From Escherichia coli (GTDB lineage Bacteria > Pseudomonadota > Gammaproteobacteria > Enterobacterales > Enterobacteriaceae), in NCBI RefSeq assembly GCF_003018115.1, contig NZ_CP027457.1: 64,000 bases of DNA. The stretch is one strand, 5' to 3'. The position numbers and the translations under genes are program-made. The notes beneath the pieces are model-generated. The model was not told the DNA's origin. It worked only from the letters and a program-made list of their open reading frames with translations, and did not search any database. Shown here piece after piece: positions 10,527 to 50,061 of this stretch (position 1 is its first letter; each line of letters begins with the position of its first letter).

Positions 10527-11344
10527 GCAATCCCCCTGTCTGCAAACTTCCCTTCCCGAACTCCCGTTAACGAGTCTTCCCTCAGCAGGTAATCAAAATC
10601 AGCCGTCCAGCCCGTGTCGTTGTCTCCGAAGTAAAACGGCTTGGCCTGATGCACAAACGCCCTGACATACGCTCTGAAACCGTCCACATTTGGCGTTTTC
10701 AGTTGCGGGATGATTTTCTTCAGGCGGCGTTTGCGTTTCTCGTTGACCGCAACAGCGTGTGGCAGTCTGTCACCGACTTCGGTGTTGTAGGCGTTCAGGA
10801 AGGATTCGTAGTCGATTCGTTCTGCCTTGCGACGTTCAGGTTTAACCTGCCCATCGCCACCCCCGTTAGGGGGTAAGGGGGTATTTGTATTTATTGTCTT
10901 TTGTATATTGTCTTTTGTGTTTAGCTGACTTGGCTTATACCCATTAGCCGACTTGGCTAATGTTTTATTAGCTGTTTTAGCTAATGTTAAGCTGTCATGG
11001 CTAATCCACTGAGAAACCACCTTGTTCACTCCGATTTTCACGCCATCAGCAATGAGGAATTTACGCTCGATAAGCTGGCGCTTGGCAGCGCAAACATGAG
11101 TGTGATGAATACCTGTCATGGCTGCTATCTGCGTGTTTGTGAGTCGATCCATCGGCTTATTGAATCCGTATGTCTTGCGCATGATAGCGAGCATCACCTT
11201 CATCTGCCGGACGGTTAAATCAGCCATCAGCAGACTGTCGGTAATCTCGTTAGCAACGCGCATGAAACCATCTTCGGTATCTGCCACGCGATGCTCCACG
11301 ACCTCCAGTTGAGGCCTGTAATCAGCTAACTTAACGACGCCCAT
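10523..11344 (-). CDS. O: Replication initiator O-like protein (contains the origin iterons)
   Basis: 273-aa ORF with HTH N-terminal domain; iterons and AT-rich tract lie within the coding sequence as in lambda O / P22 gene 18. Confidence 0.75.
10880..11007. repeat. Phage replication origin: four ~19-bp iterons (TTAGCYGNYTTGGCTAAT-like) at about 10921, 10944, 10968 and 10987, plus adjacent AT-rich tract (10880-10920)
   Basis: Direct repeats TTAGCTGACTTGGCTTATA / TTAGCCGACTTGGCTAATG / TTAGCTGTTTTAGCTAATG / TTAAGCTGTCATGGCTAATCC read from the sequence. Confidence 0.7.
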
Positions 11345-14320: not shown

Positions 14321-14572
14321 ATGGAATTTCATGAAAGTGCGATTTGTGATTTTCGCGCTAACGCAAATTCAGTAAAACCACAGCCAATTGCAGTTCTTTT
14401 TAAAACAATGGGTGCGTGGGCTGTTTTATGCTTCGCCGCTGATGACACTGACGCAAGAATGGCAATAGGCCAAGAGATGGAGATGGACCCGACAAACGAT
14501 GAATTCATAATTTATGGCGCTCCATCTAATTACTTACTTGATACCTGCAACATTTACAACAAGGCTGCCTGA
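14321..14572 (+). CDS. Hypothetical early protein (83 aa)
   Basis: ORF in pL operon between N and cIII. Confidence 0.5.
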   Translation: MEFHESAICDFRANANSVKPQPIAVLFKTMGAWAVLCFAADDTDARMAIGQEMEMDPTNDEFIIYGAPSNYLLDTCNIYNKAA

Positions 14573-20247: not shown

Positions 20248-20559
20248 ATGGAGATGATTATGGCCTATTCAACATTCAACCCTTTAACGTTACAGAAATA
20301 CCAGACAGACCCTGAAGATTTATGCTCACTGTGTGGCGGAAATCATGGTAAAGCAGCCATGATCGAATGTAAGGACAAAATCCACATTTGCCTTAATTGC
20401 GTTGATGTCCTCGTTGATATCAAAAATGAAAGAGAAGATAAAAAGCGTAGCGAGGCTATTCGCGCCTTAGATTCATGGATGCGAGATGGGTATAGTGCTG
20501 CGCAAATTTATGACTTAGCCATTTCAAAAGGCGAAATACCAGGTGTGCGAATCGAATAA
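20248..20559 (+). CDS. Small Cys-rich protein (CxxC...CxxC; about 99-103 aa)
   Basis: Motifs CSLCGG and CLNCVD. Confidence 0.5.
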   Translation: MEMIMAYSTFNPLTLQKYQTDPEDLCSLCGGNHGKAAMIECKDKIHICLNCVDVLVDIKNEREDKKRSEAIRALDSWMRDGYSAAQIYDLAISKGEIPGVRIE

Positions 20560-20594
20560 GAAGCGCACTCAAGCATCTTTTGGAGAAATCACAA

Positions 20595-20762
20595 ATGCAC
20601 TTCCGAGTCACAGGTGAATGGAATGGAGAGCCATTCAACAGAGTTATCGAAGCAGAGAACATCAATGACTGCTATGACCACTGGATGATATGGGCGCAGA
20701 TAGCACATGCAGAAGTAACCAATATTCGAATTGAAGAACTGAAAGAACACCAAGCCGCCTGA
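20595..20762 (+). CDS. Hypothetical protein (55 aa)
   Basis: ORF MHFRVTGEWNGEPF... ending in an intrinsic terminator. Confidence 0.4.
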   Translation: MHFRVTGEWNGEPFNRVIEAENINDCYDHWMIWAQIAHAEVTNIRIEELKEHQAA

Positions 20763-46271: not shown

Positions 46272-47315
46272 TTATCCACGTAGTGTAGCCGCAAAATCCA
46301 GCATACGATTGAGCGGCACCAGCGCCCTCTCTCGCAGCCTTTCATCAACATGAACCTCGTGATTGCTTCCTTCCTGTTCTAATGCCTCTGCGATGGACTG
46401 AAGGCCATTCATGGCCATCCACGGACAATGCGCGCAGCTGCGGCAGGTTGCACCCTCACCTGCGGTTGGTGCTTCCAGTAACTCTTTATCTGGCACCGCC
46501 TGCTGCATTTTGTAGAAAATGCCCCGATCGGTTGCCACGATAAGCCGCTGATGTGGCAATGTTTTCGCAGCAGCGATCAGTTGACTGGTGGAACCGACCG
46601 CATCCGCCATATCGACAATAGCTTGTGGTGATTCTGGATGCACCAGTATGGCAGCATCCGGGTATTCTTCTTGCAAGCGGGTTAACGCCTGAGTCTTAAA
46701 TTCATCATGCACAATACAGGCACCCTGCCAGCATAAAATGTCTGCGCCCGTCTGTTTTTGCACGTAACGCCCCAGATGTTTGTCGGGTGCCCAGATGATT
46801 TTTTCACCCAAACTATCCAGATGATCAATAAGTTCGACGGCAATGCTTGAAGTTACCACCCAATCTGCGCGCGCTTTTACCGCAGCAGAAGTGTTGGCGT
46901 AGACGACGACAGTATGATCGGGATGGGCATCGCAAAATGCGTTAAATTCTTCAACAGGGCAGCCGAGATCCAGTGAACATTCAGCCTGAAGTGTCGGCAT
47001 CAGAATTGTTTTTTCCGGACTGAGAATTTTGGCGGTTTCTCCCATAAATCTCACCCCAGCGACTAACAACGTAGAAGCGGGATGCTTTGCACCGAAGCGC
47101 GCCATTTCCAGAGAATCAGAAATACAGCCACCGGTTTCTTCTGCCAGTTGTTGAATTTCGGGGTCGGTATAGTAGTGGGCAACCATCACCGCATTACGTT
47201 CTTTTAGCAGACGTTTTATCTTCTCGCGGTAATACGCTTTTTCATCAATGCTTAACGGCGTCGGCTTCGGGGGGAAAGGATAAATCGCCGTGTCTGGATC
47301 AAACATCACGCTCAT
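46272..47315 (-). CDS. nadA: Quinolinate synthase A
   Basis: 347-aa [37 protein letters not shown]... Confidence 0.95.
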
Positions 47316-47561
47316 CTTACCATCTCGTTTTACAGGCTTAACGTTAAAACCGACATTAGCGTGATATTCGCTGTTATCGGTGAAGTTTGTTTTATATGCT
47401 AAACAAGATAGTCGAATGGTGGGGAAAAGTCACTCGAATTACGTATGAGATGCCGAATGCCACACTTTGCGTCTTATTCCTCCGACGTAAAGTTGTTTAC
47501 GCAGCAAGCGCGTAGTATGTCATCAGGGTCAAGAATTGAAATTGAGAGATGCCTGAATAGC

Positions 47562-47588
47562 AAAAAATCGCCTTTAGGGCGCTTTTTT
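47562..47588 (-). terminator. Distal (second) copy of the lysT-operon terminator hairpin
   Basis: AAAAAATCGCCTTTAGGGCGCTTTTTT; duplicate of the hairpin at 47718-47744. Confidence 0.5.
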
Positions 47589-47717
47589 ACATTGGTGGGT
47601 CGTGCAGGATGACTCGCTTCGCTCGCCCTTCGGGCCGTCGCCGCGAGCGGCTCCGTTGTTTCGCTGCGCTCAACTCAAACCTGCTGCAGGTTCGAATCTT
47701 TGAGTATCGCAGATAGC

Positions 47718-47744
47718 AAAAAAGCGCCTTTAGGGCGCTTTTTT
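47718..47744 (-). terminator. Intrinsic terminator following lysQ (end of the tRNA operon)
   Basis: Minus strand AAAAAAGCGCCCTAAAGGCGCTTTTTT hairpin immediately 3' of the last tRNA. Confidence 0.7.
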
Positions 47745-47748
47745 ACAT

Positions 47749-47824
47749 TGGTGGGTCGTGCAGGATTCGAACCTGCGACCAATTGATTAAAAGTCAACTG
47801 CTCTACCAACTGAGCTAACGACCC
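47749..47824 (-). tRNA. lysQ: tRNA-Lys (UUU)
   Basis: 76-nt sequence (minus strand GGGTCGTTAGCTCAGTTGGTAGAGCAGTTGACTTTTAATCAATTGGTCGCAGGTTCGAATCCTGCACGACCCACCA). Confidence 0.9.
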
Positions 47825-47857
47825 CTTGCGGGATTATGATGCTTTAATCATTCAGGA

Positions 47858-47933
47858 TGGTGGGTCGTGCAGGATTCGAACCTGCGACCAATTGATTAAA
47901 AGTCAACTGCTCTACCAACTGAGCTAACGACCC
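47858..47933 (-). tRNA. lysZ: tRNA-Lys (UUU)
   Basis: Identical 76-nt tRNA-Lys sequence. Confidence 0.9.
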
Positions 47934-48079
47934 ATACGGGTGTTACCTGAAAGATTTTTACTCGGGGCCAATCTTTAAGATTGGTGGGTCGTGCAGGATG
48001 ACTCGCTTCGCTCGCCCTTCGGGCCGTTGCTGGCGCAACGTTATCCTTCACGCTTAACATCTGAGTTTGATGTTAAAAC

Positions 48080-48155
48080 TGGTGGGTCGTGCAGGATTCG
48101 AACCTGCGACCAATTGATTAAAAGTCAACTGCTCTACCAACTGAGCTAACGACCC
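48080..48155 (-). tRNA. lysY: tRNA-Lys (UUU)
   Basis: Identical 76-nt tRNA-Lys sequence. Confidence 0.9.
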
Positions 48156-48158
48156 GAG

Positions 48159-48234
48159 TGGTGGGTGATGACGGGATCGAACCGCCGACCCCCTCCTTGT
48201 AAGGGAGGTGCTCTCCCAGCTGAGCTAATCACCC
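48159..48234 (-). tRNA. valZ: tRNA-Val (UAC)
   Basis: 76-nt sequence (minus strand GGGTGATTAGCTCAGCTGGGAGAGCACCTCCCTTACAAGGAGGGGGTCGGCGGTTCGATCCCGTCATCACCCACCA). Confidence 0.9.
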
Positions 48235-48285
48235 GATACTGCGCTGGATACTACAAACTACTTCCACCGAACCCACCGTAATTAG

Positions 48286-48361
48286 TGGTGGGTCGTGCAG
48301 GATTCGAACCTGCGACCAATTGATTAAAAGTCAACTGCTCTACCAACTGAGCTAACGACCC
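48286..48361 (-). tRNA. lysW: tRNA-Lys (UUU)
   Basis: Identical 76-nt tRNA-Lys sequence. Confidence 0.9.
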
Positions 48362-48363
48362 GG

Positions 48364-48439
48364 TGGTGGGTGATGACGGGATCGAACCGCCGACCCCCTC
48401 CTTGTAAGGGAGGTGCTCTCCCAGCTGAGCTAATCACCC
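48364..48439 (-). tRNA. valT: tRNA-Val (UAC)
   Basis: Identical 76-nt tRNA-Val sequence. Confidence 0.9.
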
Positions 48440-48474
48440 GATACTACGCTGGATACTACAACTAACTAGGTTAG

Positions 48475-48550
48475 TGGTGGGTCGTGCAGGATTCGAACCT
48501 GCGACCAATTGATTAAAAGTCAACTGCTCTACCAACTGAGCTAACGACCC
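48475..48550 (-). tRNA. lysT: tRNA-Lys (UUU), first gene of the operon
   Basis: Identical 76-nt tRNA-Lys sequence. Confidence 0.9.
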
Positions 48551-48714
48551 ACTTTTTCGTTGCTTTCGGTTTGTTTGATATCCCGTGGCAACGGCGGCAT
48601 ATATTACTGATTTCAGACTTGAGCGCAACAAAAATTTCGATGTAGATCACTCAACTGCTTATGATTCGCACGACACGACCAGAAATAATGCGACTTCTGG
48701 TCGTGTGTTATGCA

Positions 48715-49506
48715 TTACATCGCGTTCAGACGTTTTTGTGCCTGTTTAGCGCCATCAGTACCAGGGTATTTACTGATAACCTGCTGGTATACGGCTTTCG
48801 CTTTTGCGGTGTCACCTTTGTCCTGCATGATGACGCCGACTTTAAACATCGCATCTGCAGCCTTTGGTGACTTCGGATAGTTTTTCACTACCGAAGCAAA
48901 ATAGTACGCCGCATCATCTTTTTTACCCTTGTTGTAGTTTAACTGACCCAGCCAATAATTGGCGTTTGGCAGGTAAGTTGAATCAGGGTAATTTTTGATG
49001 AAATTCTGAAATGCCACCATTGCGTCATCCTGGCGGGATTTATCCTGCACCAGCGCAATAGCTGCATTGTAATCCGTGTTTGCATCACCGCTTTTCACCG
49101 GCGCGCCAGCATTCGCAGTACCAGCATCAGCTGTCGGCGTCGTTGATGCCGCCGCACCGCTTTGATCACCGCTGGTTGATTGCGCCGCTGCACCACCGCT
49201 GCTGAGGCTGTCGATCTGCAACAGGATCTGCTTTTGCCGCTCCACGACCTGATTCAGTTGATACTGATTTTCCTGAATCTGACCACGCAGGGAATCAATA
49301 TCGGATTGATTATCAGAGAGTTGTTGCTGGAGTTGGGTTAAAAGCTGGCTGTGAGCATTAGAAATACGCTCAAGTTGAGTGACGCGGTCTTCGACCGAGC
49401 CTGAGCCGACACTACTGATTGGTGCCTGAGCAAAAGCGGCCCAGGGGGCCGCTATACCAACCAGTAACGACAGACTCAATAGTTGATGTCTGAAGTTACT
49501 GCTCAT
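48715..49506 (-). CDS. cpoB: Cell-division coordinator CpoB (YbgF), TPR protein
   Basis: 263-aa ORF with signal peptide, coiled coil and TPR repeats; last gene of tol-pal. Confidence 0.9.
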   Translation of the reverse strand: MSSNFRHQLLSLSLLVGIAAPWAAFAQAPISSVGSGSVEDRVTQLERISNAHSQLLTQLQQQLSDNQSDIDSLRGQIQENQYQLNQVVERQKQILLQIDSLSSGGAAAQSTSGDQSGAAASTTPTADAGTANAGAPVKSGDANTDYNAAIALVQDKSRQDDAMVAFQNFIKNYPDSTYLPNANYWLGQLNYNKGKKDDAAYYFASVVKNYPKSPKAADAMFKVGVIMQDKGDTAKAKAVYQQVISKYPGTDGAKQAQKRLNAM

Positions 49507-49515
49507 GCAATTCTC

Positions 49516-50061
<546 letters not shown>

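Follow-up and report, generated by a model that had tools for sequence, protein, structure and literature searches.

Two tRNA-linked repeats of the RtT family in the lysT operon of an Escherichia coli genome

The lysT tRNA operon in the stretch of Escherichia coli DNA analysed here (64,000 nucleotides of contig NZ_CP027457.1; hereafter, the window) carries two short fragments of the tRNA-Lys 3' end, each joined to the same element of about 30 nt. Our best overall explanation, to which we give a probability of about 85%, is that each fragment, with its neighbouring element, forms the 3' half of a tRNA-linked repeat (TLR; Rfam RtT, RF00391). We refer to the two repeats as copies A and B; they are paralogous members of the RtT family and not rttR itself. 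The finding is real, yet the family is already described and annotated, and this class of structured spacer has been known in E. coli since 1978. TLRs were first observed in tyrT by Egan and Landy in 1978; the catalogue of Rudd (1999) lists 22 of them in K-12, spread over 10 loci with one to five at each. [quoted passage not shown] They are without known function, and the stringent-response role claimed early on for rtT has been retracted (Stenum et al. 2021, PMC8144298). Among the papers citing Rudd 1999, we found nothing on TLRs beyond Stenum et al. New in this analysis are the occurrence, across Gammaproteobacteria, of one core fused to the 3' ends of tRNAs (Lys, Tyr, Arg, Pro and Ser) and of 5S rRNA, the arm-tRNA pairing that closes a four-helix fold, and precise indels of 98-100 nt or 156 nt at five sites.

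The tRNA array occupies positions 47749-48550 on the minus strand and consists of seven intact tRNAs, as the initial annotation had claimed, namely five Lys-UUU and two Val-UAC (ARAGORN). Its gene order, between cpoB and nadA, is the same as in K-12 and in strain F8111-1SC3, and the DNA of the latter strain is 100% identical to positions 47300-48700 of the window (1,401 bases). The features of the region are as follows.

48475-48550, minus strand: lysT, tRNA (ARAGORN; Rfam tRNA)
48364-48439, minus strand: valT, tRNA (ARAGORN; Rfam tRNA)
48286-48361, minus strand: lysW, tRNA (ARAGORN; Rfam tRNA)
48159-48234, minus strand: valZ, tRNA (ARAGORN; Rfam tRNA)
48080-48155, minus strand: lysY, tRNA (ARAGORN; Rfam tRNA)
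47982-48079, minus strand: TLR copy A, short form, 98 nt (Rfam RtT, 57.8 bits; a precise 98-nt indel in strain R12)
48053-48077, minus strand: variable, site-specific 5' hairpin of copy A, UUAACAUC...GAUGUUAA (from the fold; the same hairpin occurs at the orthologous site of Kluyvera, locus L108)
48043-48052, minus strand: 5' arm of copy A, CGUGAAGGAU, pairing at 9/10 positions with the tRNA-Lys fragment to form the closing helix H1
48000-48042, minus strand: conserved core of copy A with hairpins H2, H3 and H4 (alignment and pair counts)
47982-47999, minus strand: 18-nt copy of the tRNA-Lys 3' end, AUCCUGCACGACCCACCA, which ends copy A
47858-47933, minus strand: lysZ, tRNA (ARAGORN; Rfam tRNA)
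47749-47824, minus strand: lysQ, tRNA (ARAGORN; Rfam tRNA)
47718-47748, minus strand: AUGU linker and terminator T1, directly after lysQ (hairpin of -19.1 kcal/mol)
47593-47717, minus strand: TLR copy B, long form, 125 nt, between T1 and T2 (Rfam RtT, 46.7 bits)
47686-47698, minus strand: inverted copy of the tRNA-Lys T-arm in copy B, GAUUCGAACCUGC (GCAGGTTCGAATC on the plus strand), within the 5' hairpin domain 47664-47712
47593-47610, minus strand: 18-nt copy of the tRNA-Lys 3' end, which ends copy B
47562-47592, minus strand: AUGU linker and terminator T2, a duplicate of T1 with one mismatch (hairpin of -12.4 kcal/mol)
47557-47712, minus strand: 156-nt repeat unit (copy B, tRNA fragment and T2), bounded by the 54-nt direct repeat 47557-47610 / 47713-47766

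Copy A makes up the first 98 nt of the 146-nt lysY-lysZ spacer and begins at the base after the lysY CCA, while copy B begins after lysQ, AUGU and T1. The initial annotation had reported two tRNA-Lys tail fragments of 17 nt followed by one and the same sequence. Both fragments are indeed there, but the first lies at 47593-47609, 2 nt away from the 47591-47607 given for it, and the identity to the tRNA-Lys 3' end extends over 18 nt (ATCCTGCACGACCCACCA on the transcribed strand, at 47593-47610 and 47982-47999). The shared sequence behind them turned out to belong to an exact 45-nt repeat that is far beyond chance: the 45-mer TGGTGGGTCGTGCAGGATGACTCGCTTCGCTCGCCCTTCGGGCCG, which joins the tRNA-Lys tail to the conserved 30-nt element (47608-47637 and 47997-48026), occurs exactly twice, at 47593-47637 and 47982-48026, and was matched 0 times in 100 shuffles. 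Around this 45-mer, the repeat reaches 57 nt at 95% identity (47585-47641 vs 47974-48030). The duplicated terminator hairpin was likewise found where it had been placed, at 47562-47588 and 47718-47744, with one mismatch between the copies, and the pair sits within a direct repeat of 54 nt at 98% identity (47557-47610 vs 47713-47766). Both T1 and T2 consist of a GC-rich hairpin and a following U tract on the transcribed strand, as expected of Rho-independent terminators, and T1 has been named the Rho-independent terminator of the lysT operon (PMC4176162). A scan of positions 47300-48800 for promoters and terminators did not recover T1 on the transcribed strand and gave nothing resembling a promoter; terminator strength was therefore taken from RNA folding, which gave -19.1 kcal/mol (z = -6.0) for T1 and, because of one stem mismatch, only -12.4 kcal/mol for T2.

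The Rfam RtT model (RF00391), whose curated gathering score is 45 bits, matched copy A at 47982-48148 with 57.8 bits and copy B at 47593-47718 with 46.7 bits, just above that threshold and over model positions 1-130. The same model has five matches in the K-12 lysT operon, which is hence the five-copy locus, in agreement with the published range of one to five TLRs at each locus. Both copies in the window adjoin a stable-RNA gene on its downstream side within a tRNA operon, end with the 18-nt tail identity and are homologous to known TLRs, their core being common to the tyrT, Arg, Pro and rrB copies. They are not rttR in the strict sense, since they lie in the lysT operon with a tRNA-Lys tail and not in tyrT-tyrV with a tRNA-Tyr tail. 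Copy B is labelled 'RtT sRNA' by PGAP (NCBI) in the identical strain F8111-1SC3 and in many other genomes. The wording 'processed from tyrT transcript' that PGAP uses is a generic label. The suggestion in the initial annotation of a small structured spacer element was essentially right, as both copies belong to the TLR/RtT family and have a fold with covariation support. The opposite outcome that it had allowed for, namely ordinary spacer present in all E. coli, does not agree as worded with what we found: the elements are missing in some strains, and one of them is annotated as an RtT sRNA.

On the transcribed strand, copy A runs from the variable hairpin through the 10-nt arm CGUGAAGGAU and the three-hairpin core to the 18-nt tRNA-Lys tail. 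The core hairpins are H2 (CGUUGC/GCAACG), H3 (GCCC-GAA-GGGC) and H4 (GC-GAA-GC, flanked by GA/GA). The arm can pair at 9/10 positions with the first ten bases of the tail, and this helix H1 would close a four-helix, cloverleaf-like fold in copy A, leaving ACCCACCA as a single-stranded tail. Folding of the element, a check proposed together with the first description of the repeats, recovered the four-helix model for copy A (-32.7 kcal/mol, z = -3.5; ViennaRNA). Copy B is a long form, in which a 5' hairpin domain containing the inverted T-arm GAUUCGAACCUGC precedes the same core and tail as in copy A; the inverted segment aligns to the T-arm-like segment of the RtT model. Its closing helix is degenerate (non-canonical pairs in the Rfam alignment), and its fold is modestly better than that of shuffled sequences (z = -2.0).

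We then examined the fold in an alignment of 58 distinct short-form Lys- and Arg-linked TLRs (alignment A1). The four-helix model paired 95% of the cells in these 58 sequences, as compared with 28-45% when the partners were slid, and five pairs change on both sides; the observed covariation score was reached by 0/500 shuffles. The H4 pair occurs as GC, CG, AU and UA, while the invariance of H2 and H3 is partly due to the search pattern, which required both. H1 was 88.8% paired, with four pairs changing on both sides; this covariation lies mostly between tRNA classes and so represents few independent events, and an inverted-duplication origin would give it as well as selection for pairing. The 5' arm tracks the tRNA, being CGUGAAGGAU in Lys-linked, GGGGAAGGAU in Tyr-linked and GGGAGGAU in Arg-linked elements, and the arm of the Hafnia Arg-linked element, GGGAAGAU, differs where its tRNA-Arg T-stem differs. 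A hammerhead-like GGAUGAG...CGA in the tyrT-type arm was rejected by eye, because the CUGA and GAAA core residues are missing and there is no Rfam ribozyme.

To see how widely the core occurs, GCRACGGCCCGWAGGGYGAG was scanned in one genome per species, which yielded at least 120 loci. Among the 162 core matches pooled and listed, 101 have next to the core an exact copy of the 3' end of the nearest upstream tRNA, mostly 18-19 nt long; these tails are those of Lys (61), Arg-ACG (22), Tyr (11), Pro (6) and Ser (1). Further core matches carry a 5S rRNA tail. In K-12 rrB, between rrnB T1 and T2, the same H2/H3 core is followed by a copy of the 5S 3' end, and this 5S-identical tail is 18 bp long (PMC8144298). 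Outside Enterobacterales, RtT matches above threshold came from Neptuniibacter and Thioalkalivibrio only, among the matches listed. Several other non-enterobacterial core matches (Alphaproteobacteria, Kiritimatiellae, Lentisphaerae and others) fall below the RtT threshold and seem to be coincidental or to lie in coding sequence. Citrobacter (lysT-valT site) and Kluyvera (lysY-lysZ site) have orthologous TLRs that agree with those of E. coli in their site-specific 5' parts. That the core sequence is strongly conserved from Enterobacterales as far as Neptuniibacter and Thioalkalivibrio suggests that the element may have a specific binding partner or a function beyond that of a 'processed spacer'.

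These relatives bear on whether the fragments could simply be inert debris of duplicated and partly deleted tRNA-Lys genes, without a structure of their own. The fragments are identical to the tRNA-Lys tail, tRNA copy number differs between strains and the 5' half of the Rfam model aligns to the tRNA body, all of which would be expected of debris. However, the sequence beside the fragment is not derived from tRNA, and in many genera the same core adjoins the tails of Tyr, Arg, Pro and Ser tRNAs and of 5S rRNA. Furthermore, the hairpins of the core covary, the break always falls 18-19 nt before the 3' end and orthologous copies persist across genera. We consider debris very unlikely as an explanation, and the shared core largely refutes it.

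One core occurs on at least six stable-RNA tails; each time some 18-19 nt are duplicated, and in most cases the arm is complementary to the tail. This could also be taken as a sign that TLRs are a present or former self-propagating element that homes to stable-RNA 3' ends with the 5' arm as its target guide. Against such homing, the TLR subtypes largely follow tRNA type across the genera of alignment A1 (by inspection; Citrobacter sedlakii L102 is an exception), and we saw no sign of recent movement between loci in this alignment. In addition, the polymorphism within species is explained by deletion between repeats, E. coli copy B has no good arm, and we know of no enzyme associated with TLRs, so that homing seems highly improbable. 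An origin by insertion of the core into the T-loop may be suggested by Citrobacter and Kosakonia, although deletion between AAGGTTCGA repeats can produce the picture equally well.

The operon also varies between strains. We compared the lysT operon alleles of the window strain, K-12 and eight further E. coli genomes, a comparison that the initial annotation had called for. All five TLR sites were either filled or empty among these ten strains, giving 0 to 5 copies per operon: there are none in strain R12, five in K-12 (the five RtT matches mentioned above) and two in the window, and FCI48 has two tandem distal units. The empty and filled spacers measure 35/135, 51/149, 48/146 and 33/132 nt, and the lysQ-to-nadA trailer measures 277, 433 or 589 nt, corresponding to 0, 1 or 2 of the 156-nt units. 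When a TLR with its 18-nt tail (98-100 nt) was removed in silico from a filled allele, the empty allele resulted, with 34/35, 50/51, 31/33 and 43/48 identities; removal of one 156-nt unit gave the single-terminator trailer, with 240/250 identities. Copy A is accordingly missing in R12 as a precise 98-nt indel. While the four internal sites were judged from the ten sequenced alleles, a count over 5,426 complete E. coli genomes concerned copy B only, which was at least 80% covered in 3,239 of them; BL21(DE3) and the O157:H7 strain H6437 had partial matches to it only. The number of tRNAs varies too, with four Lys and two Val in O157:H7 and four Lys and one Val in DSM 103246, and a mosaic of filled and empty sites is also present in Citrobacter, Enterobacter, Kluyvera, Silvania, Pluralibacter and others.

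The three empty sites of the window strain are most likely deletions between 18-nt repeats, as judged by sequence comparison, because Citrobacter and Kluyvera have the orthologous TLRs described above, with matching 5' parts. The comparison points to each element being a recombination cassette by virtue of its duplicated tail. Whole units would be lost or gained cleanly through exchange or slippage, either between the 18-nt repeats or between the 53-nt repeats that include the terminator, and recombination among the identical tRNA-Lys genes would alter the tRNA copy number. Recombination had been proposed in the initial annotation as one possible cause of the pattern, and this holds in the sense that entire TLR units come and go between direct repeats of 18 or 53 nt; it does not hold as a source of random tRNA debris, because the tRNA fragment is an integral and defining part of the element. 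As natural strains have 0 to 5 copies, each TLR of the lysT operon appears to be individually dispensable.

Integrases that target tRNA genes classically leave a second copy of the tRNA 3' end that begins in the T-loop. The elements could accordingly be scars or miniature remnants of integrative elements in the tRNA-Lys T-loop, with the tail as an attR-like repeat; the start of the duplication in the T-loop, the filled and empty sites that differ precisely at the repeat, and the inverted T-arm inside copy B would all fit an integrase. Nevertheless, only 80-103 nt with short chance ORFs lie between the repeats, and the same structure occurs on 5S rRNA, which has no T-loop. The repeat is 18 nt at four sites and about 53 nt at the distal site, and orthologous sites are occupied across genera. 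We detected no integrase or mobile-element DNA between or beside the repeats, where there are a conserved non-coding core of 80-103 nt and the flanking genes cpoB and nadA. A search of a phage collection with both copies produced no genuine phage matches; the few short matches that it did give lie in fragments lacking annotation or in host contigs classed as phage. Taken together, an integrase scar is extremely unlikely. Three viral-contig matches have a tRNA-Lys/Val context (valU-operon-like in L004) and look like host flank. An arginine-rich ORF in copy B was also dismissed as a by-product of the core sequence.

How the TLRs of the lysT operon are expressed can be viewed against what has been reported for K-12. 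There, the operon is a single transcript of about 1100 nt that ends at the lysQ terminator; the terminator is removed by RNase P, which then cuts at each tRNA 5' end in the 3' to 5' direction, and the Lys pre-tRNA trailers, up to 150 nt long, have been proposed to be removed by RNase II and PNPase and then by RNase T (PMC4176162). These long Lys trailers are the TLR-containing spacers, and the repeats go unmentioned in that study. When spacer probes were used on northern blots, the RNAs seen were precursors and intermediates alone, in RNase mutants, and no stable spacer RNA was reported for the wild type (PMC4176162); likewise, no discrete stable RNA from lysT-operon TLRs is reported in PMC4176162 or PMC8144298. 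The rRNA-operon TLRs (such as rrB) are made by T1 read-through and are short-lived, with a 3' end 3 nt past the 5S-like repeat, a position that the authors ascribed to recognition by RNase E of a determinant shared with 5S (PMC8144298).

Given the transcript shown in K-12, copy A would be transcribed within the lysT polycistronic precursor. After the RNase P cut at the lysZ 5' end, it would make up most of the 3' trailer of pre-tRNA-Lys(lysY), which 3' exonucleases would then remove, as proposed for K-12. Copy B would be made only through putative T1 read-through, if at all, because it lies between the two copies of the operon terminator. By analogy, its arrangement appears to be that of the rrA/rrB/rrF TLRs between T1 and T2 of the rRNA operons. 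In both copies, we infer that the duplicated tRNA tail most likely provides the element with the same 3'-end processing determinant as a real tRNA.

A further reading, which is compatible with our best explanation, is that the TLRs are trans-acting small RNAs, that is, regulators or sponges like RrA/B/F or 3'ETS-leuZ, released from the lysT precursor or by T1 read-through and using the core as a protein- or RNA-binding platform. The high conservation of the core across Gammaproteobacteria would be consistent with this role, as would the T1-TLR-T2 layout, which matches that of the rrn TLRs known to bind Hfq and CsrA (PMC8144298). However, 19 TLRs of tRNA operons score below 0.01 in CsrA-binding prediction and TLRs are reported to have no known function (PMC8144298), and the H3 loop is GAA in the lysT copies as opposed to GGA in rrB. 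The K-12 spacer probes, as described above, revealed nothing but precursors and intermediates, and these in RNase mutants; some strains have no copy in the lysT operon at all, and the original rtT phenotype was retracted. On balance, a trans-acting role is unlikely.

Regardless of function, identification of the repeats as TLRs has practical consequences. For annotation, the fragments belong under TLR/RtT-family elements and not under pseudo-tRNAs or novel repeats, which is a routine result. The combination of identical tRNA-Lys genes with 18-nt and 53-nt repeats makes the operon a hotspot for changes in copy number and spacer length, which bears on genome assembly, typing and comparisons of tRNA dosage. 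TLRs are a conserved class that was described more than 45 years ago and has no assigned function, and the natural alleles of lysT, with 0 to 5 copies, offer clean presence/absence material for experiments. More speculatively, and in our view improbably, the TLR may be an ancient gammaproteobacterial RNA device, built of a four-helix junction, a free ...ACCA tail and a cognate arm, that acts on 3'-end maturation or turnover or on a partner of the near-invariant ACGUUGC-N4-GCAACGGCCCGNAGGGCGAG core, or that once spread by arm-guided homing. If this were true, the lysT alleles would be ready-made genetic test material.

Four known systems can be compared with the lysT TLRs. The attL/attR duplications of tRNA produced by integrases resemble them in having a direct repeat from the T-loop on and precise filled and empty alleles. 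In contrast to such duplications, the lysT elements have no integrase, island or phage relatives, a conserved structured RNA core lies between their repeats, and a 5S-linked version exists.

The TLRs rrA, rrB and rrF of rrnA, rrnB and rrnD (Stenum et al. 2021) are closer. They have the T1-TLR-T2 layout of copy B and, like it, end with a copy of the upstream stable RNA 3' end followed by a terminator; the H2/H3 core of rrB, GAACGTTGCGAAGCAACGGCCCGGAGGGTG, is common to the lysT copies. The differences are that these TLRs have a 5S tail and CsrA-binding GGA motifs, the corresponding loop of the lysT copies being GAA or GUA, and that T1 and T2 of the lysT operon are duplicates of each other, whereas those of rrnB differ.

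RtT/rttR of the tyrT operon (RF00391; Bosl and Kersten 1991) belongs to the same covariance-model family as copies A and B and follows the same plan of 5' arm, T-arm-like hairpin, core and tRNA tail; furthermore, the arginine-rich frame of the lysT core (RRPEGRA) is the same frame as tpr. Its tail and arm are those of tRNA-Tyr, whereas tRNA-Lys takes this place in copies A and B. Compared with this plan, the T-arm-like hairpin is missing from copy A, a short form, and the closing helix from copy B. The tyrT copies score 133-138 bits against the RtT model and the lysT copies 47-58 bits. Finally, the TLRs catalogued in K-12 share with copies A and B the setting in a tRNA operon, the position directly downstream of a tRNA gene, the 18-nt tail identity and the conserved core. 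Nothing essential sets copies A and B apart from these K-12 TLRs, of which they are members, and the window strain has only two of the five copies present in the K-12 operon.

Within copy B, the long-form tRNA-linked repeat (TLR) that lies between terminators T1 and T2 after lysQ, a short open reading frame was found:

47587-47673 of the window, minus strand: 28-codon ORF with a TTG start, MSAAKQRSRSRRRPEGRAKRVILHDPPM, inside copy B

In its RRPEGRA stretch, this ORF reads the TLR core in the frame also used by K-12 tpr (...RRQRPEGRSAQR). This agreement suggests that the arginine-rich frame comes with the conserved RNA core, as a by-product of it. The product of K-12 tpr is named 'protamine-like protein'. 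Copy B also contains one arm (47659-47676) of an 18-nt inverted repeat, the other arm of which lies upstream of lysT (48616-48633); the complementarity between the two arms is 83%, and this match is probably due to chance. Another RNA feature in the window is unconnected with the TLR repeats of the lysT operon:

49477-49615 of the window, minus strand: CpoB/ybgF intercistronic RNA thermometer (RF02782; Rfam 142 bits), upstream of cpoB

The TLR core was also observed in other settings. At four loci it interrupts a tRNA-Tyr-like body, and this chimera is kept in one design between genera:

Chimera loci: Citrobacter werkmanii (L008), Citrobacter sp. FP75 (L015), Kosakonia cowanii (L035) and Phytobacter massiliensis (L060)

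In all four, the tRNA-Tyr-like body is the first gene past the tyrT promoter and leader, and carries an altered D-loop (GCGATCATAAGGG) as well as the anticodon loop CUGCAAA. The core breaks the T-loop past GGTTCGA, the acceptor strand is gone from the 3' side, and two intact tRNA-Tyr genes follow downstream. In Brenneria roseae (L040), the core sits in the 23S-5S spacer, and a gap of about 10 nt separates its end from the downstream 5S rRNA gene (14401-14516, minus strand). A gammaproteobacterial MAG (L096; 3710-3830) carries it in tandem copies. Both share the layout ACGTCGC-AAA-GCGACGGCCCGAAGGGCGAG-hairpin-CGAG, and their core copies score under the gathering score of the Rfam RtT family (45 bits).

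In K-12, the terminators of the two operons, valU and lysT, are reported to be identical. An IMG/VR contig (L004; about 11040-11330) harbors a valU-operon-like Val-Lys array followed by a long-form TLR core, the tRNA-Lys tail of which has decayed (GAGTCATCCGGCACAGACATC). Partial matches to the lysT operon, comprising tRNA-Val and tRNA-Lys genes, were also found at 20408-20599 of the 50,485-bp plasmid NZ_CP098226.1.

The distal unit of the operon occurs in tandem elsewhere: Klebsiella sp. BIGb0407 (L017; 1315-1646) has three consecutive units (long TLR, Lys tail and terminator) with a period of 156, and the trailer of E. coli FCI48 (L132) has two 156-nt units. These tandem units are similar to the array downstream of tyrV, in which a 178-bp unit is repeated 3.14 times.
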